This document shows positions 13,007 to 31,416 of a DNA stretch of 32,000 nucleotides, one piece after another. Every line of letters starts with the position of its first letter. Position 1 is the first letter of the stretch. The stretch is taken from contig NC_014034.1 in the NCBI RefSeq assembly GCF_000021865.1, positions 3,510,001 through 3,542,000 of the forward strand, given 5' to 3'. The DNA comes from Rhodobacter capsulatus SB 1003 (GTDB lineage Bacteria > Pseudomonadota > Alphaproteobacteria > Rhodobacterales > Rhodobacteraceae). A program made the position numbers and the translations under genes. The notes below the pieces were generated by a model, which had not been told where the DNA came from, searched no databases, and saw only the letters and a program-made list of their open reading frames with translations.

Positions 13007-13084
13007 CGCAACCCCCTTCGTTTTGCACAGGCTAACGGGCGCACAGGCAATGGACAATCCCGCCGCCCGCGCCATATTGGGCGC

Positions 13085-14520: not shown

Positions 14521-15161
14521 TGCGGACGTTCCTCGATGCCGCCGTGCAGCACGAATTCCATCAGCGTCACCAGGGTTTCGCGCCGGGTCGGCAGGCTGGG
14601 CGCCTCCAGCAGCGCCTGCTTGTCCTCGGGCTCGAAGGGCAGAAGCATCGAGAGCGCGTTGATCAGGAATTCGTCCTCGGCGTCTTTCAGTGCCTCCCAA
14701 TCGGTATCCAGCCCCTGCGTGTGCAGATAGCGGCCCAGCAGGTCCAGAAGCCCGTCGCGGTCGAAGCCGGGGTCATGTTCGGGGGCGCCGATGTCGCGGG
14801 GAAAATCGGTCCAGCCGATCTCGGCGCGGATATAGGGGCAGCTGCCCGCAATCTCGCGCTGCAGCCGGAACCGGGACACGCCCGACAGCGTGATCATGTA
14901 ACGGCCGTCCTCGGTTTCGGAAAAGCCGGTCAGCCGCCCGGCACAGCCGATGGCCGAGAGCTTTTGCGCACCGTCGCGGCCCTTGCAGGGCTGGATCATG
15001 CCGATCAGCCGGTGCGGGGTGGCCATGCAATCTTCGATCATCTGCAGATAGCGCGGTTCGAAGATATGCAGCGGCAGCCGCCCCCGGGGCAGCAAAAGCG
15101 CCCCCGGAAGCGGGAAGAGCGGGATCTGGGCAGGCAGGTCACTGGGTTTGATCATCCGCAT
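14517..15161 (-). CDS. LON-peptidase substrate-binding (LON N-terminal, PUA-like) domain protein
   Basis: [33 protein letters not shown] ... [27 protein letters not shown] is the typical LON_substr_bdg pattern. ATG at 15161 or 15155. Confidence 0.8.
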
Positions 15162-15181
15162 CAGATAGCCCGCCCCCGCCG

Positions 15182-16093
15182 TCAGGCAAATATCATCGAC
15201 GACAAACGCCGCCGCCCTTTGACCACGATCGGATCGGCGGGCTTGAGGCTGTCGAAGATGGTGAAAAGCTGGGTCTTCGCCGCGCCCTCGTTCCACTCGC
15301 GGTCGCGGCGGAAAAGCTCCAGCAGCTCTTCGACCGCCTCTTCGACCTGCCCCGCCGCATGCAGCGCGGTGGCGTGATCGAAGCGGGCCTGATGGTCGTT
15401 CGGATCGGCGGCAAGCTTCGCCTTGAGTTCATCGAGCGGCCCGGCCTTTGCCGCCTGCTTCGCCAAGGCCAGCTGCGCGCGGGCGGCTTCGACCGGGGCC
15501 GCCGTCGCGATCTTGGCCGGCGCCCCCGCCAGGATCAGTTCCGCCTGATCGAGATTGCCCGCCGCCAGATGCGACCGCACGAGGCCGCCATAGGCTTCGG
15601 CATTCTCGGGCTCTTCGCCCAGGATCGCGGCGAAGGTCTCGGCGGCATCAACCGCCGCGCCTTCGGCGAGCATTTCTTCCGCCGCGGCCAGGGCCTCGCC
15701 CAGACCGCCATCGCCCGCAAGCCCCGCCAGCTTCTCGACAAAGGCCTTGACCTGCGAGGCGGGAACGGCGCCCTGGAACATGTCGACCGGGCGGCCCTGA
15801 TAAAAGGCGACGACGGTCGGGATCGATTGCAGGGGCAGGCCCTGCTGCGCCAGCACCTGCGCCAGACGCTGGTTTTCATCGACGTTGATCTTGGCCATCA
15901 CCACGCGCCCCTTGAGCGCGTTGACGGCGGCTTCCAGCTGCGGGCCGAGGGTCTTGCAGGGGCCGCACCAGGGCGCCCAGAAATCGACGATGACCGGCAC
16001 GGCCATCGAGGCATCGACCACCTCGGCCATGAAGGTGGTTTCGGTGACATCCTTGACGAACGTTTGCGCGGGTTTCGTGTCGGTTCCGAACAT
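15182..16093 (-). CDS. Thioredoxin-domain plus TPR co-chaperone (YbbN/CnoX-like)
   Basis: ATG at 16093 preceded by GAGGA. VIVDFWAPWCGPCKTLGP (thioredoxin WCGPC), followed by an Ala-rich TPR-like C-terminal half. Confidence 0.87.
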   Translation of the reverse strand: MFGTDTKPAQTFVKDVTETTFMAEVVDASMAVPVIVDFWAPWCGPCKTLGPQLEAAVNALKGRVVMAKINVDENQRLAQVLAQQGLPLQSIPTVVAFYQGRPVDMFQGAVPASQVKAFVEKLAGLAGDGGLGEALAAAEEMLAEGAAVDAAETFAAILGEEPENAEAYGGLVRSHLAAGNLDQAELILAGAPAKIATAAPVEAARAQLALAKQAAKAGPLDELKAKLAADPNDHQARFDHATALHAAGQVEEAVEELLELFRRDREWNEGAAKTQLFTIFDSLKPADPIVVKGRRRLSSMIFA

Positions 16094-16160
16094 GGAGGTC
16101 CTCATTCTAGTTCTTTGCCCCTATATGCGCCGCCGCCCGGGCCGCGCCAAGGGGCGCCGT

Positions 16161-16949
16161 TCAAAGATCGAATGTCGCAAAGACCGGGGCATGGTCCGAG
16201 GGCTGCTCCCATCCCCGCGCGGCGCGCAGGATGCGGCTGCCATGCGCCGCGCCTGCAATGTCGGGCGTCGCCCAGATGTGATCCAGCCTGCGGCCCTTGT
16301 CGGCGCCGTCCCAATCGGGCGAGCGATAGGACCACCAGGAATAAAGCTGCCCCTCGGGGATATCGGCACGGGTGACATCGACCCAGCCGCCCGCATCTTG
16401 GGCGGCGGCGAGATGCTCGACCTCGATCGGCGTATGCGAGACGATCTTGAGCAGCGCCTTGTGGTTCCAGACGTCGTCCTCGCGCGGCGCAATGTTCAGA
16501 TCGCCGACCAGAATCGCCCGGTCCGGCCGCTGGGCGTGGAAATCGTCACGCATATGGCTGAGGAAATCGAGCTTCTGGCCGAATTTCTCGTTTTCCGCCC
16601 GGTCCGGGATGTCACCGCCTGCGGGCACGTAGAAATTGTGGATGGTGACGCCGTTTTCCAGCCGCCCGGCGATGTGGCGGGCATGGCCAAGATTGGCGTA
16701 ATCGCCCGCCCCCGCCTCGACCATCGGCAGTTTCGACAGGATCGCGACACCGTTGTAGCCCTTTTGCCCGCGCGCGACGTGATAGCGGTAGCCCAGCTCG
16801 GCAAAGGCGGCGAAGGGGATCTTGTCGACCGGGCTCTTGCATTCCTGCAGGCACAGGACATCGGGCGCCTCCTCGGTCATCAGCTTGCACACCAGCGCTT
16901 CGCGCAGGCGGACCGAGTTGATGTTCCAGGTGGCAAGGGTGAAACTCAT
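16161..16949 (-). CDS. xthA: Exodeoxyribonuclease III
   Basis: ORF 16161..16949: MSFTLATWNINSVRLR...VLCLQECK...GYNGVAILSK...GDLNIAPRE...WSYR...RLDHIW...SDHAPV are the ExoIII/AP-endonuclease motifs. Confidence 0.92.
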   Translation of the reverse strand: MSFTLATWNINSVRLREALVCKLMTEEAPDVLCLQECKSPVDKIPFAAFAELGYRYHVARGQKGYNGVAILSKLPMVEAGAGDYANLGHARHIAGRLENGVTIHNFYVPAGGDIPDRAENEKFGQKLDFLSHMRDDFHAQRPDRAILVGDLNIAPREDDVWNHKALLKIVSHTPIEVEHLAAAQDAGGWVDVTRADIPEGQLYSWWSYRSPDWDGADKGRRLDHIWATPDIAGAAHGSRILRAARGWEQPSDHAPVFATFDL

Positions 16950-17036
16950 GGGCAGGCTCCTTTGGGCTGCGCGAGCATCGCCCGGCGCCGCAAAAAGGGC
17001 AAGCCTTCGGGCGGGCCGGTTCCTGCGGACCCCGCC

Positions 17037-18473
17037 TCAGCCCGCCTCGAAGCGAAACAGCGCCAGGGACCGTTCGCGTTCGTTCACCTGCAAGGGCCGG
17101 TTCACCGGGGCATGGGCGCGGGCGGTGCAATCGGCGCGTTCGCACAGATAGCAGTTCAGCCCGATCTCCACCGGCCGGGTGCGGGACAGGTCGATCCCCT
17201 CGGCATAGATCAGCCGCGGCGCATAGGCGACATCGCAGCCCAGCCCGATCGCCAACCGCTGCGCCGGGGCGCCCTGCGTGCCGCCCGCCCGCGTCACCGT
17301 GCGCGCCACCGAAAAATAACTTGCGCCTTCGGGCATGCGGATGACCTGCGTGCGCACTTCCTCCGGGGTCTCGAAAGCGGCATGGATGTTCCAAAGCGGA
17401 CAGGTGCCGCCAAAGCGCGAGAACGGAAACCGCCCGGCGCTGAAGCGCTTCGAGAGATTCCCCGCCCGGTCCACCCGCACGAAAAAGAACGGAATCCCGC
17501 GCGCGCCGTCGCGTTGCAGCGTCGACATCCGATGCGCGGTCTGCTCGAAACTGGTGCCGAAGCGATGCGACAGAAGCTCGACATCGTAGCGGTGCGACTC
17601 GCAGCTGGCCAGAAACCGGCCGTAGGGCATCATCAGCGCGGCGGCGAAGTAATTCGCCAGGCTCACCCGCATCAGCGCCGCCGCCGCCGGATCCTCCAGC
17701 CCCGCCGCAGCGATCAGCCGCGTCAGGATCGGCTCCTGCTCCAGACTGGCCAGCAGCACCCCGATCTGAAAGCGGCGGCTGGCCTGGCCCAGAAGTTCCG
17801 AAAGCAGCAATTCCCGCCGCTCGGGATCATAGCGGCGCAGCTGGCCGCGCATCGCCTCGGCCTGCCCGATCCGCACCGTCACCCCATGCGCCGCCAGCCG
17901 CCCGGTCAGCGCCAGATGCGGCTCGTGCCGGTGCAGGGCCAATTCGTCCGCCAGATCCTCGGCGGCGCGGTCGAGCGCATCGACATGGTTGCGCCGGGCG
18001 TAAAACCAGGCCCGCACCGCCTCGACCGGGCGCGAGGTTTCCCCCAGGGCTTCGACCTTGTCGCGGTCGGTCAGCGGGTTCTCCTCGGCCATCGGCGCCA
18101 GTACGGCGGCCCGATGCGCCGCCTGCAGCCGCACGAAAGCCGCCGCGATCCGGGGCGAGGCCTGCAACACCGCCTCGATCTCGGCGCGGGGCACGGCATC
18201 GGCCCCGGCGGCGGGCGTCTTCAGCGCGGCGGCGAAATCGGAGGCCAGCTGCGCATCCGCGGCGGGCGACAGCTCCGAGATGTTCAGATCATAGACCTCG
18301 GCCAGCCGCATCAGCAGCTTGACCGAGGCGGGGCGCTGATCGGCCTCGATCAGGGTGATGTAACTGGCCGAGACCCCCAGTTCCGCCGCCATCTGCGCCT
18401 GCGTCAGCCCCAAAGACTGCCGCAGCACCTTCAGCCTTTGCCCGATGACCAGCTTTTCCGCCCGTGGCGCCAT
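17037..18473 (-). CDS. ramB: XRE-HTH / ImmA-like peptidase-fold / DUF2083 transcriptional regulator (RamB/ScfR/actinobacterial-PrpR family), divergent from aceBA
   Basis: ORF 17037..18473: N-terminal HTH (IGQRLKVLRQSLGLTQAQMAAELGVSASYITLIEADQRP). Conserved core ANYFAAALMMPY...FFFVRVDRAGNLSKR. C-terminal Cys set (GGTCPLWN, LGCD, CYLCERADC), as in the Fe-S/CoA-sensing family. Paralogue of 26811..28193. Confidence 0.87.
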   Translation of the reverse strand: MAPRAEKLVIGQRLKVLRQSLGLTQAQMAAELGVSASYITLIEADQRPASVKLLMRLAEVYDLNISELSPAADAQLASDFAAALKTPAAGADAVPRAEIEAVLQASPRIAAAFVRLQAAHRAAVLAPMAEENPLTDRDKVEALGETSRPVEAVRAWFYARRNHVDALDRAAEDLADELALHRHEPHLALTGRLAAHGVTVRIGQAEAMRGQLRRYDPERRELLLSELLGQASRRFQIGVLLASLEQEPILTRLIAAAGLEDPAAAALMRVSLANYFAAALMMPYGRFLASCESHRYDVELLSHRFGTSFEQTAHRMSTLQRDGARGIPFFFVRVDRAGNLSKRFSAGRFPFSRFGGTCPLWNIHAAFETPEEVRTQVIRMPEGASYFSVARTVTRAGGTQGAPAQRLAIGLGCDVAYAPRLIYAEGIDLSRTRPVEIGLNCYLCERADCTARAHAPVNRPLQVNERERSLALFRFEAG

Positions 18474-18520
18474 GTGACAATCCTTACAGATTTCCCGCCT
18501 GTCACATGACGAAAGTGACA
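18471..18520. promoter_or_regulatory. Candidate operator in the ramB-aceB intergenic region: inverted repeat CATGTGACA-N20-TGTCACATG plus a third GTGACA
   Basis: Perfect 9-bp arms at 18471-18479 (overlapping the regulator ATG) and 18500-18508, with AGTGACAG at 18514-18521. Lies in the only AT-richer stretch between the divergent genes. Confidence 0.4.
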
Positions 18521-18628
18521 GAACAACCCAATGCTTTCAAACACATAATGCACATGCAGCGTAACATTACTAGCTTGACTTCACCCGAGTCACCCGGCGG
18601 CCCGAAGCCCCGCCCCGAAAGGAACCCC

Positions 18629-20251
18629 ATGTCGCTGGATTGCCCATCCCCCACCGCCCCGCCGCTGGTCCTGCGCCGCCTTCCCGGTCAGGATCTTGTG
18701 CTGACCCCCGAGGCACTGGCCTTTCTGGCCGAGCTGCAGACCCGTTTCGGCACCCGGATTCACGCGCTGATGCTGGCGCGCGCGCGCCGTCAGGCGCGGA
18801 TCGACGCGGGCGCCCTGCCCGATTACCTGCCCGAGACGAAAGAGATCCGGCAGGGCATCTGGGAGGCCGCGCCGGTGCCCGAGGCCCTGCGCGATCGTCG
18901 GGTGGAAATCACCGGCCCGGTCGAGCGCAAGATGATGATCAACGCGCTGAACTCGGGCGCGCGGGTGTTCATGGCCGATTTCGAGGATGCGACGGCGCCA
19001 AGCTTCGCCAATATCCTTGCCGGCCATCGCAACATGCTCGATTACCGCGACGGCACGCTGGAATTCGACGATCCGAAAACCGGCAAAAGCTATCGCGTCG
19101 GCGCCGATCCGGCGGTGCTGATCGTGCGGCCGCGCGGGCTGCACATGGCCGAGGCGAATGTGCTGCTGGCCGGGCAGCCGATCTCGGCGGCGCTTTTCGA
19201 TTTCGGCCTGACGCTGTGGCATTGCGGCCGGGCGCTGGCGGCCAGCGGCCGCGGCCCGTTCTATTACCTGCCGAAGCTTGAAAGCCACCACGAGGCGCGG
19301 CTGTGGAACGAGGTCTTCGTCTTTGCCCAGGACCGCGTCGGGCTGGCGCGGGGCACGATCAAGGCGACGGTGCTGATCGAAACCCTGCCCGCCGCCTTCG
19401 AGATGGACGAGATCATCTGGGAGCTGCGCGACCATATCGCCGGGCTGAACTGCGGGCGTTGGGATTATATTTTCAGCTACATCAAGACCTTGCGCAACCA
19501 CAAGGCGTTCACCCTGCCCGACCGCGCCGAGGTGACGATGGACCGCGCCTTTCTGGCCAGCTATGCGGCACGGCTGGTCAAGGTCTGCCACCGGCGCGGC
19601 ATCCACGCCATGGGGGGCATGGCGGCGGCGATCCCGGTGCGCGACGACGCCGTGGCGAACGAACGCGCCTTCGCCCAGATCCGCGCCGACAAGCTGCGCG
19701 AGGTGGGGATGGGCCATGACGGCACCTGGGTCGCCCATCCCGATCTGGTGCCGGTGGCGATGGCGGTCTTTGACGCCGAGATGCCGGGGCCGAACCAGAT
19801 CCGCATTCCGCGGCAGGCCTGGCGGATCGAACCGGCGATGCTGTTGCGCCCGCATGAGGGCCGGGTGACCGAGGCGGGTCTGCGCACCAATATCTCGGTG
19901 GCGCTCGACTATCTGGCGGCCTGGCTCTCGGGGCGCGGCGCGGTGCCGATCCGCAACCTGATGGAGGATGCGGCGACGGCCGAGATCTGCCGCGCGCAGC
20001 TGTGGCAATGGCGCCATCACGGCGTGTCGGTGGCGCTTGCGGCGGGCGGCAGCCGGGGGGTGAGTTCCGACTGGCTGGGCGAGCTGATGCAGCAGGAAAT
20101 CGCCACGGTGCTGGACCGGATCGGGGCGAACGCCTTTCACCGCGGCCATTACGCCACCGCCGCACGGCTGCTGCTGGAAGCCGTGACCGCCGAAACCCTG
20201 CCCGATTTCCTTACCACCGCCGCCTATGCGGTTTTGAACGCGCTCGACTGA
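18629..20251 (+). CDS. aceB: Malate synthase A
   Basis: ATG at 18629 preceded by GAAAGGA. VEITGPVERKMMINALNSGARVFMADFEDATAP..., GPFYYLPKLESHHEARLWNEVF..., NCGRWDYIFS are malate synthase A motifs (541 aa). The track start at 18464 is an upstream GTG inside the intergenic region. Confidence 0.94.
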   Translation: MSLDCPSPTAPPLVLRRLPGQDLVLTPEALAFLAELQTRFGTRIHALMLARARRQARIDAGALPDYLPETKEIRQGIWEAAPVPEALRDRRVEITGPVERKMMINALNSGARVFMADFEDATAPSFANILAGHRNMLDYRDGTLEFDDPKTGKSYRVGADPAVLIVRPRGLHMAEANVLLAGQPISAALFDFGLTLWHCGRALAASGRGPFYYLPKLESHHEARLWNEVFVFAQDRVGLARGTIKATVLIETLPAAFEMDEIIWELRDHIAGLNCGRWDYIFSYIKTLRNHKAFTLPDRAEVTMDRAFLASYAARLVKVCHRRGIHAMGGMAAAIPVRDDAVANERAFAQIRADKLREVGMGHDGTWVAHPDLVPVAMAVFDAEMPGPNQIRIPRQAWRIEPAMLLRPHEGRVTEAGLRTNISVALDYLAAWLSGRGAVPIRNLMEDAATAEICRAQLWQWRHHGVSVALAAGGSRGVSSDWLGELMQQEIATVLDRIGANAFHRGHYATAARLLLEAVTAETLPDFLTTAAYAVLNALD

Positions 20252-20374
20252 TGGACCCGATCCCGCTGTTTTCGCCCTTTGGCGGCCCGATCCCCGAAGC
20301 TTGCCTGAGACCCTCGGCGCAACCTTTTCCCGCTTCCCCCAAACCCCGGGCAGAGCCCGTCGAAAGGAAACACC

Positions 20375-21985
20375 ATGACGAAAAGACAGACTTTTTCGGA
20401 AATCCGCTCCGCTATCCTGTCCCGCTACCCCTGCGGGGTCACGCCGGGTGGCGTGGCGGTCGATGACATCGTGCAGCTGCGGCTGCAAAACACCTGGGAC
20501 ACGCATCTTGATATCGCGCGGGCGATGGCCGGGGTGATGCGCGCCGACATGGCGGCCTATGACGCCGATCCGACGAAATTCACGCAAAGTCTTGGCTGCT
20601 GGTCGGGCTTTCACGCGCAGCAGATGATCAAGGCGGTCAAGCGGATGCGGGGCACAGCGCGCGGCACCTATGTCTATCTGTCGGGCTGGATGGTCGCCGG
20701 TCTGCGCAACCGCTGGGGCCATCTGCCCGATCAGTCGATGCATGAAAAGACCGCCGTCGCCGATCTGATCGCCGAGATCTACACCTCCTTGCGGCAGGCA
20801 GATGAGGTCGCGATGAACGATCTCTTCAAGGCGCTGAAAGCCGCGCAGACCGAGACCGAGCGGCAGGCAGCGATTGCGGCGATCGACGGGTTCGAAACCC
20901 ATGTCGTGCCGATCATCGCCGATATCGACGCAGGCTTTGGCAACGAACATGCGACCTATCTTCTGGCGAAAGAGCTGATCAAAGCCGGGGCCTGCTGTTT
21001 GCAGATCGAAAATCAGGTCTCGGATGCCAAGCAATGCGGCCATCAGGACGGCAAGGTGACGGTCCCGCGCGAGGATTTCATCGAAAAGCTGCGCGCCTGT
21101 CGGCTGGCCTTCGAGGAGCTGGGGGTGGAAGACGGGGTGATCGTCGCCCGCACCGACAGTCTGGGCGCCGGTCTGACGCAGAAGGTGCCGGTGTCGCAAC
21201 GCCCGGGCGATCTGGCCTCGGACTACATCAAATGGCTGGCGACCGCGCCGATCAGCGCCGAAAACCCGATCCGCGAGGGCGAACTGGCGCTTTATCAGAA
21301 CGGCGCCTTCGTCAAGCCGCAGCGGCTGGCGAACGGGCTTTTCCCGTTCCGCCCCGGCACCGGCCGCGCCCGGGTGGTGGAAGATTGCATCGCCTCGCTG
21401 ACGCTGGGGGGCGCCGATCTTTTGTGGATCGAGACCGACACGCCGAATGTCGATGAAATCGCCGGGATGGTGGCCGAGATCCGCAAGGTCGTGCCCGATG
21501 CGAAGCTGACCTACAACAACTCGCCCAGCTTCAACTGGACGCTGAACCTGCGCAAGCAGGTGCGCGCGCAGTGGCTGGCCGAGGGCACGATCACCGAAGA
21601 CGCTTATCCGAACGGGCCCGAGCTGATGAAGCCCGACTATGACGACACGCCCTTCGGCCGCGAAGCCGATGCGTGGCTCAAGGCCTTCCAGACCGAGATC
21701 GCGACGCGGGCGGGGGTGTTCCACAACCTGATCACCCTGCCCACCTTCCATCTGACCGCGAAATCGATGGATGAACTCTCGCGCGGCTATTTCGGCGAAG
21801 ACAAGATGCTGGCCTATGTCGCCACGGTGCAGCGCGCGGAAATCCGCGGCGGCGTCTCGGCGGTGAAGCACCAGCACGAGGTCGGCTCGGATCTGGGCGA
21901 CACGTTCAAGGAGATGGTCGCGGGCGAACGCGCGCTGAAGGCGGGCGGGCATGCCAATACGATGAACCAGTTCGCGGCAGAGTGA
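20375..21985 (+). CDS. aceA: Isocitrate lyase, long (~535 aa) form
   Basis: ORF 20375..21985, GAAAGGAAA upstream. IIADIDAGFGN and the catalytic-loop signature KQCGHQDGK (variant of KKCGH). TDTPN... matches the ICL family. At 536 aa it has insertions relative to the ~430-aa enterobacterial type. Confidence 0.94.
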   Translation: MTKRQTFSEIRSAILSRYPCGVTPGGVAVDDIVQLRLQNTWDTHLDIARAMAGVMRADMAAYDADPTKFTQSLGCWSGFHAQQMIKAVKRMRGTARGTYVYLSGWMVAGLRNRWGHLPDQSMHEKTAVADLIAEIYTSLRQADEVAMNDLFKALKAAQTETERQAAIAAIDGFETHVVPIIADIDAGFGNEHATYLLAKELIKAGACCLQIENQVSDAKQCGHQDGKVTVPREDFIEKLRACRLAFEELGVEDGVIVARTDSLGAGLTQKVPVSQRPGDLASDYIKWLATAPISAENPIREGELALYQNGAFVKPQRLANGLFPFRPGTGRARVVEDCIASLTLGGADLLWIETDTPNVDEIAGMVAEIRKVVPDAKLTYNNSPSFNWTLNLRKQVRAQWLAEGTITEDAYPNGPELMKPDYDDTPFGREADAWLKAFQTEIATRAGVFHNLITLPTFHLTAKSMDELSRGYFGEDKMLAYVATVQRAEIRGGVSAVKHQHEVGSDLGDTFKEMVAGERALKAGGHANTMNQFAAE

Positions 21986-22006
21986 AGCAAGGGAGGGCCG
22001 AAAGCG

Positions 22007-22044
22007 CCGTGCCGCCCCACGACCCCGGGGCGGCACGGTTCTTG
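22007..22044 (+). terminator. Rho-independent terminator after aceA, possibly bidirectional
   Basis: Perfect 12-bp stem CCGTGCCGCCCC (22007-22018) / GGGGCGGCACGG (22027-22038), 8-nt loop, then TTCTTG. Lies between the convergent aceA and the minus-strand gene ending at 22062. Confidence 0.65.
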
Positions 22045-22061
22045 CGCGCGGGGCCCGGCGC

Positions 22062-23199
22062 TCAGGCGAAGACGCCGGGCATGACCCCCTGCGGCCCGGC
22101 GCCGATCAGCGTGGCAAGGCTGCCCATCGCCGCCCAGTCGATCCCTTGCACCGGCGCCAGCCCGGCGCGATGGCGCAGCAGCGCAAGCCGTTCCGCACAA
22201 TCCGCAAGCGGCCCCGAGCCCAGACCGCCCTGCAGGATCAGCCGGTCCGGCAGGGCCTGACGCAGGTCTTCCAGCAGCCGCGCCGACCGCCCGCCGGGGG
22301 CTTCGGCGCGCATCCTCGAGCCGGTCACGATCACCACCGCCCCGGCTTCGCCGCGCAGGCTGTCCAGGATGTCGCCAAGCTCAAGCTCGAGGATCACCCG
22401 CACGACAGCCCCGCAAGGCGCAACAGATCCGCCTTCAGGATCGTGCCGATCATCTCGGTTTCCCCCGGCGGCATCACGATGCAGACCCGCCCGCGCGGCG
22501 GCAGCGGCTGCGACGGCCGCCCCGCTCGCTGCAGCAGGCTGTTCAGACGGGTCTGCGCCAGAGCCACCTCGGCAAAGCCGATCGCCGCGGCCTCCTGCAT
22601 CTGGCCAAGCCGCTGCAGGCTTTCCGCGACGAACCCGGCCCGCGCCTGCAGATCGTCGCGCGCCAGCACCGGCAGGGCTGGCTCCGCCGCGCTGTCCAGC
22701 AGCCTTTCGACGAAATCGGGCACCCGCCGCAACAGGTCGGATTGCGCGAAAGAGCCCAACGCATGATCTTGCGCCAGATCGTCGAAGACGCGCTGCGCCA
22801 GCGCCAGCAGATCCTCCTCCGGCCGCCACGCCGTCCCGTCGCGCAGGCGGGCGGGGTGCTGATGCAGGACCGCCTGCCGCAAAGGCCAGCGGGGAAAGCG
22901 GCGCCTGTCGGTCCAGCCGACCGAAAGCAGCCGCGCCTCGGCCAGCCGGGGGTCGGGGCGATCTGCGCCATCGCGGCGCAAAGCTGCGGCCCGCCCTTCG
23001 ATCCAGTGCAGCCAACCGTCCTCGACCGCAACCGTCGCCCCGCACAGATCTGCGCGCCCGGCAGGGCCGCCAGATCGTGCCGGATCGGGGCGCCGGTCTG
23101 CGGCGGGTCCGCCGCGCGGGCCGCGCCGATCAGAACCAGGCGCAACAGCCGTTGCCTGCCGGGCAAAGAAGTTTCCATCGCGTCCATTTTCACCGCCAT
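22062..23199 (-). pseudogene. Riboswitch-controlled gene for a cobalamin-binding-domain-like protein; reading frame broken twice (pseudogene, sequencing compression, or recoding)
   Basis: Protein-like translation runs through three minus-strand frames. Segment 1 is 23199 to ~23045 (MAVKMDAMETSLPGRQRLLRLVLIGAARAADPPQTGAPIRHDLAALPGAQIC). Segment 2 is ~23044 to ~22412 (ATVAVEDGWLHWIEG...RVCIVMPPGETEMIGTILKADLLRLAG). Segment 3 is ~22411 to 22062 (AVVRVILELELGDILDSLRGEAGAVVIVTGS...GVFA*). ATG 23199 has a GGGAGG Shine-Dalgarno. One extra G at each junction restores a single 1140-nt (379-aa) ORF. Confidence 0.5.
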
Positions 23200-23297
23200 G
23201 CGCGCCTCCCTGAACAGGGGCGGGGAAACGGCGACACGAACCAAGGCGCGGGCCTCAGGCTTCACGTCCCCCCGGTTCACCCCGCCCGAAACGTCTG

Positions 23298-23474
23298 CGA
23301 TGGCAGGTCTCCTGGCTTGCGGGTCATCGCGCCCCCGGACCTTCCCGGGCGCGGGCCCAGTGGCATTTCCGGCGTTGCTCGTCGCTCACAGTTGCGGGGG
23401 CAGCCGCGGCCTTGCCCGGACGGGCGCACCGCATTCCCTTTTCAGGCGCAGCCCCGAAGACCGCGCCACCATCG
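23298..23474 (-). promoter_or_regulatory. Cobalamin (B12) riboswitch, minus strand, upstream of the 23199 start codon
   Basis: Minus-strand read: CGATGG...AAAAGGGAATGCGGTGCG...GCGGCTGCCCCCGCAACTGTGAGCGACGAGC...GCCACTGGGCCCGCGCCCGGGAAGG...AGCCAGGAGACCTGCCATCG. Conserved core (GGGAA..GGTG, CCCCGCAACTGT, B12 box GCCACTG, GGGAAGG, CAGGAGACCTGCC) and a closing P1 (CGATGG/CCATCG). Confidence 0.82.
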
Positions 23475-23648
23475 CCACAAGGATGAAAGCAACCGGCGGC
23501 GCTGTAAAGCGGGTTTGCGCCCCCAAAGGGCCGCTGCGCGGCACTCGGTCGCAGGCGGCACCGGCCTGGCGCCTGTTTGCACGGGCTGCGGCGGGCCTTG
23601 GGCGGCGGGCGGCGGCAGGCGCAGCGGCAGCAAAGGGAAAACTACATG

Positions 23649-23678
23649 TTGACACCAAGCGCCGGTTGATTGCTATAT
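23649..23678 (+). promoter_or_regulatory. Sigma70-type promoter candidate for the riboswitch-nrdD transcript
   Basis: TTGACA (23649-23654), 18-nt spacer, CTATAT (23673-23678), placing the transcription start just before riboswitch P1. Confidence 0.45.
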
Positions 23679-23684
23679 CGTGAC

Positions 23685-23850
23685 GCTCTGGGTCTTGCGG
23701 TTCCCCGCAAGCCAAGAGGGAAGCCGGTGCGATTCCGGCGCTGCCCCCGCAACTGTAAGCGGCGAGCGCGGCTGATCACGCCACTGGGCCCCGGCCCGGG
23801 AAGGCCAGCCAAGCTGTGACCCGCAAAGCAGGAGACCTGCCCGAGCCTTG
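23685..23850 (+). promoter_or_regulatory. Cobalamin (B12) riboswitch, plus strand, upstream of nrdD
   Basis: CTCTGGGTCTTGCGGTTCCCCGCAAGCCAAGAGGGAAGCCGGTGCGATTCCGGCGCTGCCCCCGCAACTGTAAGCGGCGAGCG...GCCACTGGGCCCCGGCCCGGGAAGGCC...AGCAGGAGACCTGCCCGAG. All conserved cobalamin-riboswitch core elements, including the B12 box, are present. About 100 nt upstream of the nrdD ATG. Confidence 0.87.
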
Positions 23851-23951
23851 ATGACCACCGCTGGCGGAGGGCCGTGCGGGGCGCTGTCGGACCCGTTGCC
23901 GGGGCCGTACGGCGTTCCCGTCCCTGCAAAGGCCCAAGGACGAGGACCGCG

Positions 23952-25982
23952 ATGCCGATCGCCGATGCTGCTTTGACTGCCCCCGCGGGTTTTTCCACCC
24001 TGCGCACCCGCGATGGCGCGCTTGTGCCCTTTGACGCCCGCCGCATCGTGGCGGCGCTGGCGCGGGCGGGCGATGCCAGCGGCGAATTCGGCGCGGCCGA
24101 GGCCCGGGACCTGACGCAAGCGGTGCTTGACCGGCTGGCGCTTCTGGCCCCGGCCAGCCCCCCCGATGTCGAGACGATCCAGAACATGGTCGAGGCGGTC
24201 CTGGCCGATACCGCCCATGTTGCCACCGCCCGCGCCTATGCGGTCTACCGCGACCAGCACGCCCGCCTGCGCGCGGACAACCGGGTGCTGATCGACGTTG
24301 AACGCTCGGTCAGCGAATATCTGGAACGCTCCGACTGGCGGGTGAATGCCAATGCCAATCAGGGCTATTCGCTGGGCGGGATGATCCTGAACATCTCGGG
24401 CAAGGTGACGGCGAATTACTGGCTGAGCCATGTCTATCCGCCCGAGGTCGGCGAAGCGCATCGCGAGGGCGACATCCATATCCACGATCTGGACATGTTC
24501 GCGGGCTATTGCGCGGGCTGGTCGCTGCGCACGCTGCTGCACGAGGGGCTGAACGGCGTGCCCGGCGCGATCGAATCCGCCCCGCCCGCGCATCTGTCAA
24601 GCGCGCTGGGGCAGATCGTCAACTTTCTGGGCACGTTGCAGAACGAATGGGCGGGGGCGCAGGCGTTTTCCTCCTTTGACACCTATCTGGCGCCCTATGT
24701 GCGGCTGGACGGGCTGAGCTATGCGCAGGTCCGTCAGGCGATGCAGGAATTCATCTACAACCTGAATGTCCCCTCACGCTGGGGCACGCAGACGCCCTTT
24801 ACCAACCTGACCTTTGACTGGACCTGCCCCGAGGATCTGCGCGATCAGGTGCCCATGGTGCAGGGCCGCGAGGTGGGCTTCACCTATGGCGATCTGCAGG
24901 CCGAGATGGACCTGATCAACCGCGCCTATATCGAGGTGATGACGGCGGGCGATGCCAAGGGGCGGGTTTTCACCTTTCCGATCCCCACCTACAACATCAC
25001 CCCGGATTTTCCGTGGGAGAGCGACAACGCCGATGCGCTGTTCGAGATGACGGCGAAGTACGGGCTTCCGTATTTCCAGAATTTCGTGAATTCGGAATTG
25101 CAGCCGCATATGGTGCGCTCGATGTGCTGCCGGTTGCAGCTGGACCTGACCGAGCTGCTCAAGCGCGGCAACGGGCTGTTCGGCTCGGCGGAACAGACCG
25201 GATCGCTGGGCGTCGTCACGCTCAATTGCGCGCGGCTCGGTCATCTGCACCGCGGCGACGAGGGCGAGCTGATGGTGGCGCTGGATCATCTGGCGCGGCT
25301 CGCGCGCACCAGCCTTGAGATCAAGCGCAAGGTGATCCAGCGCCATATCGATGCCGGGCTTTTCCCCTATACCAAGCGCTACCTTGGCACGCTGCGCAAC
25401 CACTTCTCGACGCTCGGCGTGAACGGGCTGAACGAGATGGTGCGGAATTTCACCGCCGATGCCGAGGATATCACCACCGAGGCGGGCAAGGCGCTGGCGC
25501 TGCGGGTGCTTGATCGGCTGCGGGCGCAGATGGTGGCCTTTCAGGAAGAGACCGGCCATCTTTACAACCTTGAAGCCACCCCGGCCGAGGGCACGACCTA
25601 TCGCTTTGCCCGCGAAGACCGCAAGCGCTTCCCCGGCATCCTGCAGGCGGGCACGGCCGATCAGCCCTATTACACCAATTCCTCGCAGCTGCCGGTGGGC
25701 TTCACCGATGACCCGTTCGAAGCCCTGGCGCATCAGGAAGCGCTGCAGGCGAAATACACCGGCGGCACCGTGCTGCATCTTTACATGGGCAGCCGGGTCT
25801 CCTCGGCCGAGGCCTGCCGCAAACTGGTGCGCCGGGCGCTGACGAACTTCCGCCTGCCCTATATCACCGTCACCCCCACCTTCTCGATCTGCCCGAAACA
25901 CGGCTACATCGCGGGCGAACACGAATTCTGCCCGAAATGCGATGCCGAACTGATCGCGAAGAAACGCGCCTGCGCCTGCTGA
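23952..25982 (+). CDS. nrdD: Anaerobic ribonucleoside-triphosphate reductase (class III) large polypeptide: ATP-cone plus catalytic barrel plus Zn-ribbon, but no glycyl-radical motif
   Basis: ATG at 23952 preceded by AAGGACGAGGA. N-terminal ATP-cone (LRTRDGALVPFDARRIVAAL...). NISGKVTANYWL, IHIHDLD, NEWAGAQAFSSFDTYLAPY, TFPIPTYN, MCCRL and LEATPAEGT..YRFA are NrdD motifs. Ends ...CPKHGYIAGEHEFCPKCDAELIAKKRACAC*. Confidence 0.92.
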   Translation: MPIADAALTAPAGFSTLRTRDGALVPFDARRIVAALARAGDASGEFGAAEARDLTQAVLDRLALLAPASPPDVETIQNMVEAVLADTAHVATARAYAVYRDQHARLRADNRVLIDVERSVSEYLERSDWRVNANANQGYSLGGMILNISGKVTANYWLSHVYPPEVGEAHREGDIHIHDLDMFAGYCAGWSLRTLLHEGLNGVPGAIESAPPAHLSSALGQIVNFLGTLQNEWAGAQAFSSFDTYLAPYVRLDGLSYAQVRQAMQEFIYNLNVPSRWGTQTPFTNLTFDWTCPEDLRDQVPMVQGREVGFTYGDLQAEMDLINRAYIEVMTAGDAKGRVFTFPIPTYNITPDFPWESDNADALFEMTAKYGLPYFQNFVNSELQPHMVRSMCCRLQLDLTELLKRGNGLFGSAEQTGSLGVVTLNCARLGHLHRGDEGELMVALDHLARLARTSLEIKRKVIQRHIDAGLFPYTKRYLGTLRNHFSTLGVNGLNEMVRNFTADAEDITTEAGKALALRVLDRLRAQMVAFQEETGHLYNLEATPAEGTTYRFAREDRKRFPGILQAGTADQPYYTNSSQLPVGFTDDPFEALAHQEALQAKYTGGTVLHLYMGSRVSSAEACRKLVRRALTNFRLPYITVTPTFSICPKHGYIAGEHEFCPKCDAELIAKKRACAC

Positions 25983-25999
25983 CCCCAAAGGAGAACCCG

Positions 26000-26188
26000 A
26001 TGAACAAGCCGCTGACCCAGACCGACCTTGAAAGCGCGATGACCCTTGACGATGCCGAACGCACCCGCTGCGAGATCTGGACGCGGGTGATGGGCTATCA
26101 CCGGCCGATGGCCTCCTTCAACACCGGCAAGAAGGGCGAGGCGGCCGAGCGGGTCTATTTCTCCGAAGCGCGGGCGCATCTTGGCTGA
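26000..26188 (+). CDS. Small (62 aa) stand-alone NrdD C-terminal glycyl-radical segment
   Basis: ATG at 26000 preceded by AAAGGAG at good spacing, 17 nt after the nrdD stop and in a different frame. TRVMGYHRPMASFNTGKKGEAAERVYF matches the canonical NrdD C-terminal RV.GY....N.GK..E...R glycyl-radical motif. Confidence 0.75.
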   Translation: MNKPLTQTDLESAMTLDDAERTRCEIWTRVMGYHRPMASFNTGKKGEAAERVYFSEARAHLG

Positions 26189-26798
26189 GCTGGCGCTCTC
26201 GGGCCTCGTGCGGCACTCGGCCTGCGACTGGCCGGGGGAGCTGGTGGCGGTGCTTTTCACCCAGGGCTGCCCCTGGTCCTGCCGCTATTGCCACAACCCC
26301 GACCTGATCCCGGCCCGGGCGGGAACCCTGCCCTGGGCCGAGGTGCGGGACTTTTTGCAAAGCCGCCGCGGGCTTCTGGACGGGGTGGTGATCTCGGGCG
26401 GCGAGCCGACCCTGCAGGCCGCCCTGCCCGCCGCGCTGGCCGAGATCCGTTCGATGGGCTTTCGCACCGGGCTGCACAGCGCCGGGCCTTACCCCGAGCG
26501 GCTGGCCCGTGTGCTGCCGCTTCTGGATTGGGTGGGCTTTGACGTGAAGGCGCCCTTTGCCGATTATCCGCGCATCACCGGCGTGCCCGGATCGGGGCTG
26601 CGGGCGCAGGAAAGCCTGCGGCTTCTGCAGGAAAGCGGCGTCGCCCATGCGCTGCGCACGACGGTGCATCCGCGCCTGCTGGGCGCCGCGGATCTGGACC
26701 GGATCGGCGCCGATCTGGCCGAGCTGGGCCTGCCGATGGCAGAGCTGCAACCCTTCCGCGCCGCGGGCTGCATCGACACCGAGCTTTGCGCGACCTGA
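26181..26798 (+). CDS. nrdG: Anaerobic RNR activating protein (radical SAM)
   Basis: ORF 26181..26798. The TTG start overlaps the preceding stop (TTGGCTGA). SACDWPGELVAVLFTQGCPWSCRYCHNP (CxxxCxxC radical-SAM cluster), VVISGGEPT. Confidence 0.86.
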   Translation: MAELALSGLVRHSACDWPGELVAVLFTQGCPWSCRYCHNPDLIPARAGTLPWAEVRDFLQSRRGLLDGVVISGGEPTLQAALPAALAEIRSMGFRTGLHSAGPYPERLARVLPLLDWVGFDVKAPFADYPRITGVPGSGLRAQESLRLLQESGVAHALRTTVHPRLLGAADLDRIGADLAELGLPMAELQPFRAAGCIDTELCAT

Positions 26799-26810
26799 CC
26801 GCTTCGCCCC

Positions 26811-28193
26811 TCACTCCGAGCCGGAATAGGGGGCGAAGCGGGTTTCCTCGGGGCGCAGCCGCAAGGGCTTTCCCAGCGTCGGAAAGGCGCGCTGCGGGCA
26901 ATCGGCGCGCTCGCAGAGCTTGCAGCCCGGGCCGATCTTCGTTGCCAGATCGGGCGCGCGCAGGTTCAGCCCGCGCGCATAGACCAGCCGGTCGGCATGG
27001 GCCAGATCGCAGCCCAGCGCGACGGCGAAGCGCTTTTCCGCCGCGCCGAAGCCGCCGCCGCCCTGCCGCAGCTGTCGGGCGATCCACAGATAGCTGCGGC
27101 CATCGGGCATCTGCGCCACCTGCCGCAAGATCTCGTCCGGGCGGGAAAACGCCTCGTAGATGTTCCACAAGGGACACGACCCGCCGATGCGGGAAAAGTG
27201 GAAATCGGTGGCCGATTGCCGCTTCGAGATATTGCCCGCCCGGTCCACCCGGATGAAAAAGAACGGCACGCCGCGCGCCTCGGGCCGTTGCAGGGTCGAC
27301 AGCCGGTGGCAGACGGTCTCGAAACCGACGCCGAAGCGGTGCGCCAGCAGCTCGATGTCGTAAGACAGCGCCTCGGCCGCGGCCAGAAAGGCGCGGTAAG
27401 GCATGATCAGCGCACCGGCATAATAATTCGCCAGCCCCACCCGCAACAGCGCCTGCGCCTCGGGGTCCAGCTGCGTCGCCGCGCACAGCCGCGCCATCAG
27501 CCCGCCCTGTTCCAGAAGCGCCAGCTGCGTCGCGATCTGAAAGGCCTGCTGGCCGGGCGTCAGATGCGCGCCCAGATGCAAGAGCCCCGCCCCCGGCTCG
27601 AACCGGCGCAGGATACCGCCCTCGGCATGCAGAATGCGGATGCCGTGCCGCGTGGCCAGACGCTCGGCCAGGGGCTGCGCCATCCGCCCGGCGGGCAGAT
27701 CCGCCCCCACCGCCTCGGCCGCGGTGTCAAGATCGGGGACATGGTTGCGGCGTTCGTAAAACCAGTCCCGCACCGCCTCGAAGGCGGCGGGGCTGGAGCT
27801 TGCGGGCGTGCTGATCTGCCCCGCCAAGGCATCGGCGCGGTCGGACAGATCGCGCAGCCGCGCCTGCATCGCCACGATCGCCCGCGCGACGGCGGGCATG
27901 TTCGCCGCGATCTCCCGCACTTCGGCCAGACTTGCCCCCGCCCCCTGATCGGCCAGCGCCCCGCGCAATTCGGCAATCAGCCGCGCCTCGTCGGCATCCG
28001 AAAACAGCTGCACATCCAGCCCGAAGGCGGCGTTGAGCTTGAGCAGCACCGGCACCGTCAAGGGCCGCTGGTTGTTCTCGATCTGGTTCAGATAGCTTGG
28101 CGAAATTTCCAGCGCGCGGGCAAGGCTTGCCTGCGTGATGCCGCGATCCTCGCGCAGCCGTTTCAGCCGCACCCCCATGAATGCCTTTGCCAT
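26811..28193 (-). CDS. XRE-HTH / DUF2083 regulator (ScfR / actinobacterial-PrpR type), divergent from the methylcitrate operon; paralogue of 17037..18473
   Basis: ORF 26811..28223. ATG at 28193 (MAKAFMGVRLKRLREDRGITQASLARALEISPSYLNQIENNQRP) aligns best with the paralogue N-terminus. ANYYAGALIMPY, FFFIRVDRAGNISKR, GGSCPLWN, LGCD and CKLCERADC are colinear with the ramB-like protein (roughly half the residues identical by eye). Confidence 0.87.
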   Translation of the reverse strand: MAKAFMGVRLKRLREDRGITQASLARALEISPSYLNQIENNQRPLTVPVLLKLNAAFGLDVQLFSDADEARLIAELRGALADQGAGASLAEVREIAANMPAVARAIVAMQARLRDLSDRADALAGQISTPASSSPAAFEAVRDWFYERRNHVPDLDTAAEAVGADLPAGRMAQPLAERLATRHGIRILHAEGGILRRFEPGAGLLHLGAHLTPGQQAFQIATQLALLEQGGLMARLCAATQLDPEAQALLRVGLANYYAGALIMPYRAFLAAAEALSYDIELLAHRFGVGFETVCHRLSTLQRPEARGVPFFFIRVDRAGNISKRQSATDFHFSRIGGSCPLWNIYEAFSRPDEILRQVAQMPDGRSYLWIARQLRQGGGGFGAAEKRFAVALGCDLAHADRLVYARGLNLRAPDLATKIGPGCKLCERADCPQRAFPTLGKPLRLRPEETRFAPYSGSE

Positions 28194-28283
28194 CTTCGCA
28201 ACCTTCGCAATTCGCCGCGTCAAGCTTCACAATATAACGCTATATCAATACTTTAACGGGAATGCCGAAAGCAAGGAAAGCTG

Positions 28284-28304
28284 CCTTTGCCAATCTTGCA
28301 AAGG
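28284..28304. promoter_or_regulatory. Candidate operator: palindrome CCTTTGC-N7-GCAAAGG just upstream of the first prp-operon gene
   Basis: 7-bp perfect arms at 28284-28290 and 28298-28304. Contains TTGCAAA (28296-28302), 7 of 8 positions of the TTTGCAAA core reported for actinobacterial RamB/PrpR sites. Overlaps the thioesterase Shine-Dalgarno region. Confidence 0.4.
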
Positions 28305-28310
28305 TTTCCC

Positions 28311-28694
28311 ATGCCCCTCCCCCCTGCCCCGCCGACCGTTCTGGTCGAGATGATCTTTCCCGATCAAGCGAACCATTACGGCACGCTGTTTGGCGGCCAT
28401 GCGCTGGCGCTGATGGCGCGGGCGGCCTTTGTCGCCGCCTGCCGCCGCGCCGCGGGGCCGGTGGTGATGGCACGATCCGAGCGGGTGGATTTCGCCACCC
28501 CGATCCGGGTCGGCGAGATGCTGGAACTGCGCGCCGAAATCCTGCGCGAGGGGCGCAGCTCGCTGACCGTGGCGGTGCGGGGCATCGCCCAGCCGATCGG
28601 CCCCGGCGCCCCCCGCCCGGCGCTGGACGGACAATTCGTGATGGTCGCCGTCGATGCCGACGGCCGTCCCCGCCCGCTTTCTTCCGCAATCTGA
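28311..28694 (+). CDS. Hotdog-fold acyl-CoA thioesterase (YciA/BFIT-like)
   Basis: ATG at 28311 (the track start at 28287 is a TTG). VEMIFPDQANHYGTLFGGHALALMARAAFVAA ... VDFATPIRVGEMLELRAEILREGRSSLTV is the typical acyl-CoA thioester hydrolase hotdog pattern. Confidence 0.78.
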   Translation: MPLPPAPPTVLVEMIFPDQANHYGTLFGGHALALMARAAFVAACRRAAGPVVMARSERVDFATPIRVGEMLELRAEILREGRSSLTVAVRGIAQPIGPGAPRPALDGQFVMVAVDADGRPRPLSSAI

Positions 28695-28715
28695 CGACAA
28701 GCAAGGAAAGACCCG

Positions 28716-30227
28716 ATGAAGACCCATGACCTGCGCAGCTACCGCTCGGCCGAGATCCTGCCGCGTTCCGAACAGCTGGCCTGGAAGATCGCCGAAGTGG
28801 CCGCCGACCCGGTGCCGGTGCTGCCCGAAGTGACCGAGATGATCATCAACCGCGTCATCGACAATGCCGCCGTCGCCGCCGCCTCGGTCGGGCGCCGCCC
28901 CGTCGCCTCGGCCCGGGCGCAGGCGCTTTGCCACCCGATGCGGCGCGGCGCCACCGTCTTCGGGATGCCGCATGGCACCCGGGTCTCGCCGGAATGGGCG
29001 GCCTGGGCGAATGGCACGGCGGTGCGGGAACTCGACTTCCACGACACCTTTCTGGCCGCCGATTACAGCCATCCGGGCGACAACATCCCGCCGATCCTGG
29101 CGGTGGCGCAGCACACCGGGCGGTCGGGCGCCGAGCTGATCCGGGGGATCGCCACCGGCTATGAAATTCAGGTCGAACTGGTGCGCGGGATCTGTCTGCA
29201 TGAACACAAGATCGACCATATCGCCCATCTCGGGCCCTCGGCGGCGGCGGGGATTGGCACGCTGCTGAACCTGCCTGCCGAGGTGATCTATCAGGCGGTG
29301 CAGCAGGCGCTGCATGTGACGACCACGACACGGCAAAGCCGCAAGGGCGAGATTTCCAGCTGGAAGGCCTTTGCCCCGGCCTTTGCGGGCAAGATGGCGA
29401 TCGAGGCGGTGGACCGCGCCCTGCGCGGCGAAGGCGCCCCCAGCCCCGCCTGGGAGGGGGAAGACGGTTTCATCGCCTGGATGCTCTCGGGCCCAGATGC
29501 GCGTTACACCGTCCGCCTGCCCGGCCATGGCGAGCCGAAACGCGCCATCCTTGACACCTATACCAAGGAATATTCGGCGGAATATCAAAGCCAGGCGCTG
29601 ATCGACCTGGCCCGCCGCCTTGGGCCGCAGATCGGCGATCTGGTGCAGGTCGACAGCATCGTGATCCACACCTCGCATCACACCCATCACGTCATCGGCA
29701 CCGGCGCCAATGATCCGCAAAAGATGGACCCCGACGCCAGCCGCGAGACGCTGGACCATTCGATCATGTATATCTTTGCCGTCGCGCTGGAGGATGGCGG
29801 CTGGCACCATGTCCGCAGCTATGCCCCCGAACGCGCGCATCGGCCCGAAACGGTCGCGCTCTGGCACAAGATCTCGACCGTCGAGGACCCGGACTGGACG
29901 CGCCGCTATCATGCCCGCGATCCGAAGCAAAAGGCCTTTGGCGGCCGCGTGGTGGTGACGCTGAAGGACGGGCGGCAGATCGTCGATGAACTGGCGCTGG
30001 CCGATGCCCACCCCGACGGCGCCCGACCGTTCCGGCGCGAGAATTACGTGCGCAAGTTCCTGACCCTGTCCGACGGCATCCTGAGCGGCGCGGAACAGAC
30101 CCGCTTTCTGGATGCGGCGGAAAACCTGGCCGATCTGCCCGCCGACGGGCTCGGTCTTCTGAATTTCACCGTGGCGGCCGATGCCCTGGGCGCGCCGCGT
30201 CCGCGCGGCATCTTCGATTGGGAATGA
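28716..30227 (+). CDS. prpD: 2-methylcitrate dehydratase (MmgE/PrpD family)
   Basis: ORF 28716..30227 (503 aa): [17 protein letters not shown]..., [58 protein letters not shown] are PrpD motifs. Sits in a prpD-prpC-prpB context. Confidence 0.92.
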
Positions 30228-30237
30228 GGGGGAAATC

Positions 30238-31413: not shown

Positions 31414-31416
31414 GAC

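Follow-up and report, generated by a model that had tools for sequence, protein, structure and literature searches.

A gene fragmented in the Rhodobacter capsulatus SB 1003 reference record most likely encodes an intact AppA homologue under cobalamin-riboswitch control

The locus and its interrupted coding signal

The subject of this study is a minus-strand gene in a 32,000-nt stretch of the Rhodobacter capsulatus SB 1003 genome (contig NC_014034.1, positions 3,510,001 to 3,542,000; G+C 66.7%), hereafter the window. The gene follows a cobalamin riboswitch, adjoins nrdDG and is interrupted as recorded. Its protein-like reading runs from an ATG at 23199 to a TGA at 22062-22064 and traverses three frames; six-frame translation and G+C content at third codon positions (GC3) agree on this with an earlier note, which was made from the sequence alone. 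The note had placed two -1 frame changes at two copies of one octamer, TGCGGGGC (GCCCCGCA on the plus strand). Both copies were located in the window, and one G added to each reproduced the single 379-aa open reading frame (ORF) that it had described. Nevertheless, the window lacks five single G/C bases relative to every other R. capsulatus assembly in the DNA alignment. The two supposed frame changes are therefore five gaps, none of them at an octamer, and the correct product has 380 aa. The features concerned are listed below, with the bases absent from the window in square brackets.

22062-23199, minus strand: AppA-like gene in its window form, 1138 nt, 5 bases short of the intact 1143-nt ORF that encodes the 380-aa protein P0010
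23049-23050, minus strand: missing base 1; intact CAG[G]ATC (CAGGATC; codon 51, Asp), window CAGATC
22989-22993, minus strand: missing bases 2 and 3 (22992/3 and 22989/90); intact GGGC[C]GGGC[C]CGCAG
22954-22955, minus strand: missing base 4; intact GCCCC[C]GAC, GCCCCCGAC (Pro83, C5), window C4
22402-22403, minus strand: missing base 5; intact TCG[G]TGCGG, TCGGTGCGG (Ser267-Val268), window TCGTGCGG
23037-23044, minus strand: first TGCGGGGC octamer; no frame change here, same in intact orthologues
22408-22415, minus strand: second TGCGGGGC octamer; no frame change here, same in intact orthologues

Gap positions were taken from blastn and MAFFT DNA alignments with intact orthologues, at two loci first and then at eight more. 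Each of the five indels in the gene removes one base from a short G/C run, and all lie within 650 nt. In the region of bases 2 and 3, the intact sequence is GGGCCGGGCCCGCAG (Pro70-Gly71-Pro72) and the window has GGGCGGGCCGCAG, and gap 5 yields a false stop after LSCG. The reading thus follows the frame path A, B, C, A, B, C. Between 22992 and 22954 it makes an excursion that reads RAAALRRDGADR in place of the true PGPQLCAAMAQIAP (protein alignment); this excursion is not visible without comparison because the wrong frame stays open there. Once the five bases are restored, the window translates to P0010, including its own E312 and V374. By contrast, the octamer-repaired protein is wrong in three places when aligned with the orthologues: it reads QICAGATV for QDLCGATV, EGRAAALRRDGADRPDPR for EGPGPQLCAAMAQIAPDPR, and LAGAVVRV for LAGLSVRV.

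The octamers themselves lie 5 to 13 nt from the nearest real gap. In the DNA alignment both are G4 in intact genes, exactly as in the window, whereas the earlier note had predicted GGGGG at both sites in orthologues. These comparisons also bear on programmed -1 frameshifting, in which P-site slippage of tRNA-Gly on G_GGG at the two octamers would make the full-length protein. Such recoding would fit two identical, same-phase octamers near two of the frame changes. However, orthologues with no need of a frameshift, every one of which is a single ORF, carry the octamers unchanged, and the real gaps lie elsewhere and number five. Shifting at the octamers also misreads conserved positions (ICAG for DLCG, RAAALRRDGADR for PGPQLCAAMAQIAP, and AV for LS). 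Furthermore, TGCGGGGC occurs at chance frequency and is not rare (8 copies in the window against 6.3 +/- 2.4 expected), and it is kept at neither position in the more distant orthologues L080 and L081. We accordingly assign frameshifting a negligible probability; slippage of tRNA-Gly on G_GGG is refuted by the orthologue comparison. Judged from these alignments, the identical-octamer pattern is a coincidence.

Probable errors in the reference record

Searching with the repaired protein returned nine relatives, mostly from R. capsulatus and some titled 'BLUF domain-containing protein', all of which are single ORFs of 365-380 aa. This bears out the view in the earlier note that the pieces belong to one gene. 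Three separate small genes are ruled out, because each orthologue is one ORF and because the alignments to AerR and AppA continue across the breaks. The intact 380-aa P0010 was found on at least 42 contigs (NCBI, JGI, ENA and Logan). By comparison, the 195-aa ORF in the middle frame of the window has the same sequence as ADE87064.1, 'conserved domain protein [Rhodobacter capsulatus SB 1003]', including the frameshift-made ends MRRDGADRP... and ...LSCG, and is recorded on 1 contig. An exact 30-mer across gap 5 of the window gave 0 matches in GTDB species representatives, so the window record is not among them.

Differences private to the window were sought over 12062-32000. Six intact loci were compared (L004, L005 and L007-L010); their sources are three complete genomes from NCBI and four SRA runs assembled in Logan. 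In this stretch each shares 99.9% identity with the window, and all oppose it at the same 16 sites. Among themselves these near-identical assemblies are identical or differ at 3 sites, and L005 matches the four Logan contigs with 100% identity over 11-16 kb. More divergent strains (97-99% identity) were also compared: L001, L003 and L006 likewise lack the window alleles, as does L002 except for the window's A at 20179. The private differences comprise 9 substitutions and 7 single-base indels, a substitution:indel ratio of 9:7 against 188:2 and 170:1 in natural strain pairs (Fisher p=1e-7). The span 20179-23828 (3.65 kb) holds twelve of the 16 (binomial p=1e-6), and 12062-20178 holds 0; the 1.1-kb gene alone holds five private deletions and one private substitution. 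Neighbouring features are touched as well. A private base loss at 23828/9 in the nrdD riboswitch lowers its score from 136.5 bits, the value in L001, L005 and L006, to 132.2 bits, and a private substitution in isocitrate lyase gives Phe427 for Leu. In our reading of the alignments, this pattern is the mark of a locally poor stretch in an old reference sequence and not of laboratory-strain evolution. Beyond the five gaps, window-private differences were seen at 20179, 21604, 21653, 21673, 23015, 23655, 23828/9, 27921, 28258 (an extra G in the window), 29498 and 31575, and these are probably errors of the same record.

A genuine strain-specific pseudogene would mean that the sequenced strain truly carries five 1-nt deletions and that the gene is dead there. 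The window does carry the gaps, as does the SB 1003 protein deposited as ADE87064.1, and no intact assembly is linked by name to SB 1003. We nevertheless regard a pseudogene as improbable. It would require five deletions and one substitution in 1.1 kb to be private to one sequence while the near-identical assemblies agree, and it would leave an indel:substitution ratio of 7:9 to be reconciled with about 1:100 between natural strains. Moreover, the private differences also strike a riboswitch and the neighbouring isocitrate lyase gene and are clustered in 3.65 kb, and the fragmented form occurs in no other assembly among the 52 sample blocks. Extrapolated genome-wide, a rate of 16 private changes in 20 kb would amount to about 3000 mutations in a laboratory derivative. 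The gene shows dN/dS of 0.35-0.39 at dS of 0.30-0.44 and, by this measure, is under purifying selection.

Taken together, the interruptions are most likely an artefact of the SB 1003 reference record, that is, sequence errors and neither recoding nor a pseudogene. The locus would then hold a single ordinary gene of 1143 nt, from which a 380-aa protein is made with no need for recoding. The earlier note had offered three explanations, namely under-called G runs, a double-frameshift pseudogene and tRNA slippage. Sequence error was the right kind of explanation, although its siting at the octamers did not survive and slippage proved baseless. A literature search found no published account of SB 1003 sequencing errors or resequencing.

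The encoded protein is a diverged AppA homologue

P0010 has a BLUF fold at its N-terminus, followed by a helical bundle and then by a Rossmann domain of the SCHIC/B12-binding-like type, with no Cys-rich tail. Its domains map to the window as follows.

22871-23151, minus strand: degenerate BLUF-like domain, about residues 17-111 of P0010 (Pfam, family alignment A3, profile-AppA alignment, AlphaFold model)
22098-22819, minus strand: helical bundle and SCHIC/B12-binding-like Rossmann domain, about residues 129-369 (alignments, AlphaFold model, Foldseek)

An exhaustive HMMER search of 1.84 billion representatives (E<=1e-3) found 101 relatives. About twenty are full-length (355-387 aa), and the remoter ones resemble either AppA (400-460 aa) or AerR/PpaA (250-280 aa). 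The family alignment A3, with 21 members, was the basis for a profile and for an AlphaFold (AF2) model of P0010, which reached a predicted local distance difference test score (pLDDT) of 84.8 and a predicted template modelling score (pTM) of 0.83. Against AppA (4hh0), the profile gave E=3.4e-56 in one colinear stretch, residues 9-332 aligning to AppA 9-369; values were 6e-17 for AerR and about 2e-5 for CarH. P0010 alone matched 4hh0 in two colinear stretches, BLUF at 51-110 and SCHIC at 197-327. The best PDB matches of the model in Foldseek were AppA without its Cys-rich region (4hh1 and 4hh0, E=6e-15). The AppA SCHIC domain 4heh aligned with a TM score of 0.73 and a root-mean-square deviation of 3.3 A, CarH and AerR came next, and LitR was also matched. 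P0010 ends at residue 380, at about the end of the Cys-less AppA construct, and its tail is not Cys-rich. By sequence and model, the protein is a full-length AppA homologue without the Cys-rich tail. The AppA-like proteins of this kind form a small family, of which the literature searched holds no description.

The BLUF half had not been noticed in the earlier sequence-only reading, because four of the five errors fall in or beside it. Even in P0010 the Pfam BLUF match is just short of the cut-off (24.7 bits for residues 49-107; cut-off 25). Photocycle residues are replaced there, with L23 for Tyr, H65 for Gln and L108 for Met (AppA Tyr21, Gln63 and Met106), and W106 is kept (AppA Trp104). Sixteen of the 21 A3 members keep the BLUF Tyr and Gln, and most keep Tyr, Asn, Gln, Trp and Met. 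The loss of Tyr, Gln and Met is a trait of the R. capsulatus clade (P0010, P0004, P0009, P0016 and P0017). As a separate observation from A3, the BLUF Tyr, Gln, Asn and Met and the cap-helix Trp are missing in this clade only, while its gene is still intact and constrained.

For the C-terminal half, the earlier note had proposed a helical cap plus a Rossmann domain of the AerR/CarH type, and both searches agree. Sequence comparison with the PDB gave AerR (7te2) at E=7e-8 over residues 189-316, spanning the second break, and the Foldseek matches are of the same kind. It was also right that Glu stands in place of the lower-axial His (GETEMIG against GEQHTLG in AerR). In the motif PPGETEMIG (245-253), E250 occupies the position of AerR His145 and E248 that of the AppA haem ligand His284. 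Within the PPGxxExxG motif of the family core, the Glu column at E250 is conserved (Asp in one member), and the His284 column is variable. P0010 retains the GG of the classical B12 fingerprint (326-327). Among family members, a His at the B12-ligand position is found only in the distant P0040, P0044 and P0104, which suggests a BLUF domain joined to a true B12-binding domain as the ancestral form. The Pfam check that the note had recommended came out against it: PF02310 and PF02607 had no match at E<=10 in either the repaired protein or P0010, and Pfam B12-binding membership is rejected on that ground. Across the 21 family members, PF02310 matches 3 and PF21966 (AppA_SCHIC) matches 6. The best-conserved stretch of the family is the fourth bundle helix, residues 211-229, AEVALAQTRLNSLLQRAGR.

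The riboswitch and its recurrence in the family

Riboswitches were called with the Rfam RF00174 covariance model (gathering score 31.5). The earlier note's attribution of the gene to a B12 riboswitch is upheld by a high-scoring aptamer directly upstream on the minus strand, and a second aptamer diverges from it towards nrdD.

23285-23488, minus strand: cobalamin riboswitch aptamer (RF00174) of the AppA-like gene, 128.9 bits, 85 nt before the ATG
23205-23210, minus strand: Shine-Dalgarno sequence GGGAGG, 5 nt before the ATG
23673-23858, plus strand: divergent cobalamin riboswitch of nrdD, 132.2 bits, with one base missing at 23828/9

All R. capsulatus lineages examined have the aptamer before the AppA-like gene. 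It is conserved in L001, L005, L006, L080 and L081 (the last two at dS of about 0.4) and stands also before relatives at 33-39% identity (L012, L014 and L015). In a family survey, for which GTDB species representatives gave 64 loci and 18 were scanned, 13 of the 18 carry a cobalamin riboswitch ending 100-140 nt before the gene, including two from Rhodovulum, R. euryhalinum and R. adriaticum; many of the relatives that have one come from metagenome-assembled genomes. No cobalamin riboswitch was found at the true AppA loci (L032 and L051; Cereibacter ovatus and C. azotoformans). A literature search found no paper linking BLUF proteins to cobalamin riboswitches.

Eight family loci carry a second, divergent riboswitch, as in the window. 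It precedes the large subunit of a class I ribonucleotide reductase (RNR) in L018, L019, L020, L022 and L025, and a BtuF-like binding protein in L016 (532-1912); the RNR and BtuF-like identities were read by eye from translations. Whichever RNR class is involved, the pairing is thus with a B12-independent enzyme. Other neighbours are cbiQ/cbiO with a cobyrinic-acid-diamide-synthase-like gene (L012), MetE (L026) and a CobW-like GTPase (L023), and no conserved operon partner was found among the family loci compared. Back-to-back riboswitches in the five class I loci were observed at about positions 1-2210, and the R. capsulatus partner is class III nrdDG. A further observation is that L012 (GCA_020023995.1) has three cobalamin riboswitch matches in 4.4 kb (2026-2201, 4714-4917 and 6200-6385). 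The weakest, borderline at 31.8 bits, precedes a Rieske oxygenase and ferredoxin-reductase pair, and the third precedes a small zf-like (PF04071) gene and the cobyrinic-acid-diamide-synthase-like gene.

Repression triggered by B12 is the usual direction for this riboswitch class. We propose that the gene is turned off when B12 binds, probably because the ribosome-binding site is then masked. A four-sequence consensus fold predicts a conserved helix in which GGGAGG pairs with a UUUC stretch at the 3' edge of the aptamer, with little covariation. The single-sequence leader fold was no better than shuffles (z = -0.4), and a scan of 21900-23950 for promoter and terminator consensus sequences found none. 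Translational control by masking of the Shine-Dalgarno sequence is therefore suggestive only. Since the riboswitch lies directly upstream, the protein would be expected only when B12 is scarce.

Neighbouring genes

The earlier note had the gene adjoining nrdDG, and both nrdD and nrdG were located.

23952-25982, plus strand: nrdD, anaerobic class III ribonucleotide reductase (676-aa call; ATP-cone and NRDD Pfam matches on the orthologous product)
26181-26798, plus strand: nrdG, radical-SAM activase (Radical_SAM, Fer4_12)

The 676-aa NrdD ends ...CPKCDAELIAKKRACAC*, and 17 nt on there is a separate 62-aa ORF at 26000-26188 (plus strand), which reads MNKPLTQ...RCEIWTRVMGYHRP..., carries the glycyl-radical motif and overlaps the nrdG start. 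The same two-piece nrdD was called in L001, L005, L006, L007, L008, L010, L080 and L081. Judging from these calls, nrdD appears to be naturally split; because the arrangement recurs in eight other loci, the split is not an error of the record. Two paralogous HTH_3 / Peptidase_M78 / ScfRs regulators flank the region, one at 26811-28223 of the window (minus strand) and the other upstream of malate synthase (L004, 14732-16168). One of them adjoins methylcitrate genes (prpB, prpC and a prpD-like gene), and the other adjoins malate synthase and isocitrate lyase.

Proposed function and significance

In R. capsulatus, B12 gates photosystem expression through AerR. A His-less, B12-repressed paralogue could act as a B12-independent stand-in for AerR, because AerR needs B12. 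In the proposed low-B12 switch, the riboswitch would open and the AppA-like protein would take over a PpsR/CrtJ-type partner, which it might bind through the conserved fourth bundle helix. AppA and AerR are the only characterised homologues and act by binding PpsR/CrtJ, and the AerR/SCHIC helix that matches AEVALAQTRLNSLLQRAGR is the one that touches the Q-linker of PpsR/CrtJ, both in the structure of AppA with PpsR and in the model of AerR with CrtJ (PMC9144470). The sole support for such binding here is the conservation of bundle helix 211-229, and we put forward the AppA/AerR-like action on a PpsR/CrtJ-type partner, as a B12-independent stand-in for AerR, only tentatively.

Alternatively, the intact protein might not be a PpsR/CrtJ antirepressor at all and might serve B12 economy itself, for example as a light- or tetrapyrrole-responsive regulator or accessory factor for B12-independent RNRs and for B12 uptake and synthesis genes. 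Such a role would fit the back-to-back arrangement with a riboswitch-controlled B12-independent RNR (class III here and class I in the five loci named above). It would equally fit the BtuF-like, cbiQ/cbiO and cobyrinic-acid-diamide-synthase-like, MetE and CobW-like neighbours, as well as the presence of the gene in metagenome-assembled genomes (MAGs) of taxa not known as phototrophs. However, these varied neighbours are all ordinary members of the B12 riboswitch regulon, so that their clustering may only mirror shared regulation. The want of a conserved operon partner and the action of the characterised homologues through PpsR/CrtJ (PMC9144470) also speak against it, and we hold this role, the main functional rival, to be about as likely as the antirepressor one.

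We estimate the probability of the whole explanation, a record artefact that conceals an intact, riboswitch-controlled AppA homologue, at roughly 0.85; on the comparisons above, the gene is real and encodes a diverged AppA homologue under cobalamin-riboswitch control. Several observations weigh on the other side. No intact assembly could be tied to strain SB 1003 itself, the BLUF domain lacks its photocycle residues, and there is no His for haem or cobalamin. Five family loci (L021, L022, L023, L029 and L075) are without the riboswitch, and the expression platform is weakly supported. Finally, the family also has members in MAGs under the labels Shimia and Oceanicaulis, neither of them a known phototroph, and this argues against a function bound exclusively to PpsR/CrtJ.

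The widely used SB 1003 gene model thus appears to be broken by sequence errors, with only a 195-aa 'conserved domain protein' annotated, and the neighbouring features with probable errors are one base of the nrdD riboswitch and one residue of isocitrate lyase. If this is true, R. capsulatus has an AppA homologue that was hidden by errors in its reference genome. Repair of the sequence reveals this full-length homologue contrary to a 2024 paper stating that R. capsulatus lacks one (PMC10890935); AppA has also been called specific to C. sphaeroides (PMC10734443). The family-wide combination of an AppA-like sensor with a cobalamin riboswitch points to a possible connection of B12 status with light sensing and gene regulation. 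Cobalamin riboswitches control B12-independent alternatives, such as metE versus metH, and nrdDG or nrdAB versus nrdJ. More speculatively, a widespread and undescribed branch of AppA/AerR proteins (BLUF plus a His-less SCHIC-like domain, almost always riboswitch-led) could be a backup, B12-independent and either flavin-based or ligand-free, for the B12-dependent photoreceptor/antirepressor AerR/PpaA, which we think doubtful. If true, these would be the first riboswitch-switched 'isoregulators', by analogy with the metE/metH and nrdDG/nrdJ isozymes.

Comparison with known systems

The closest known counterpart is AppA of Cereibacter (Rhodobacter) sphaeroides, the BLUF + SCHIC antirepressor of PpsR (4HH0, 4HH1, 4HEH and 4HH3). 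The colinear architecture is the same, and most family members keep equivalents of Tyr21, Asn45, Gln63, Trp104 and Met106. In contrast to AppA, the family protein is without the Cys-rich region at the C-terminus and does not conserve the haem ligand His284 (E248 in P0010), and the R. capsulatus clade is without the BLUF Tyr, Gln and Met. The P0010 gene is preceded by a cobalamin riboswitch, whereas the true AppA loci L032 and L051 have none. AppA and P0010 share about 19-20% identity in the structural alignment.

AerR/PpaA, the B12-binding antirepressors or co-regulators of CrtJ/PpsR (7TE2), share the helical cap and Rossmann fold and gave the best single-sequence PDB match. The motif PPGExxxxG and the following helix and strand align residue for residue, and AerR is encoded in R. 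capsulatus too. The AppA-like protein differs in having Glu250 for the lower-axial His145, Gln for the Trp of the W94/F101 cap (in R. capsulatus), and an additional N-terminal BLUF-like domain; it has no Pfam B12-binding match, and its gene lies outside the photosynthesis gene cluster. The domains of the B12 photoreceptors CarH and LitR belong to the same fold class (profile E of about 2e-5; Foldseek 3e-6 to 1e-4), but P0010 has neither a DNA-binding MerR domain nor the His ligand, and the relationship is distant.

At the level of regulation, the locus resembles the metE/metH and nrdDG or nrdAB/nrdJ systems. The same riboswitch family lies directly upstream of the P0010 gene, which is itself paired with riboswitch-controlled genes for a B12-independent RNR. 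In those systems the controlled gene encodes an enzyme or transporter, whereas here it encodes a sensor/regulator homologue.

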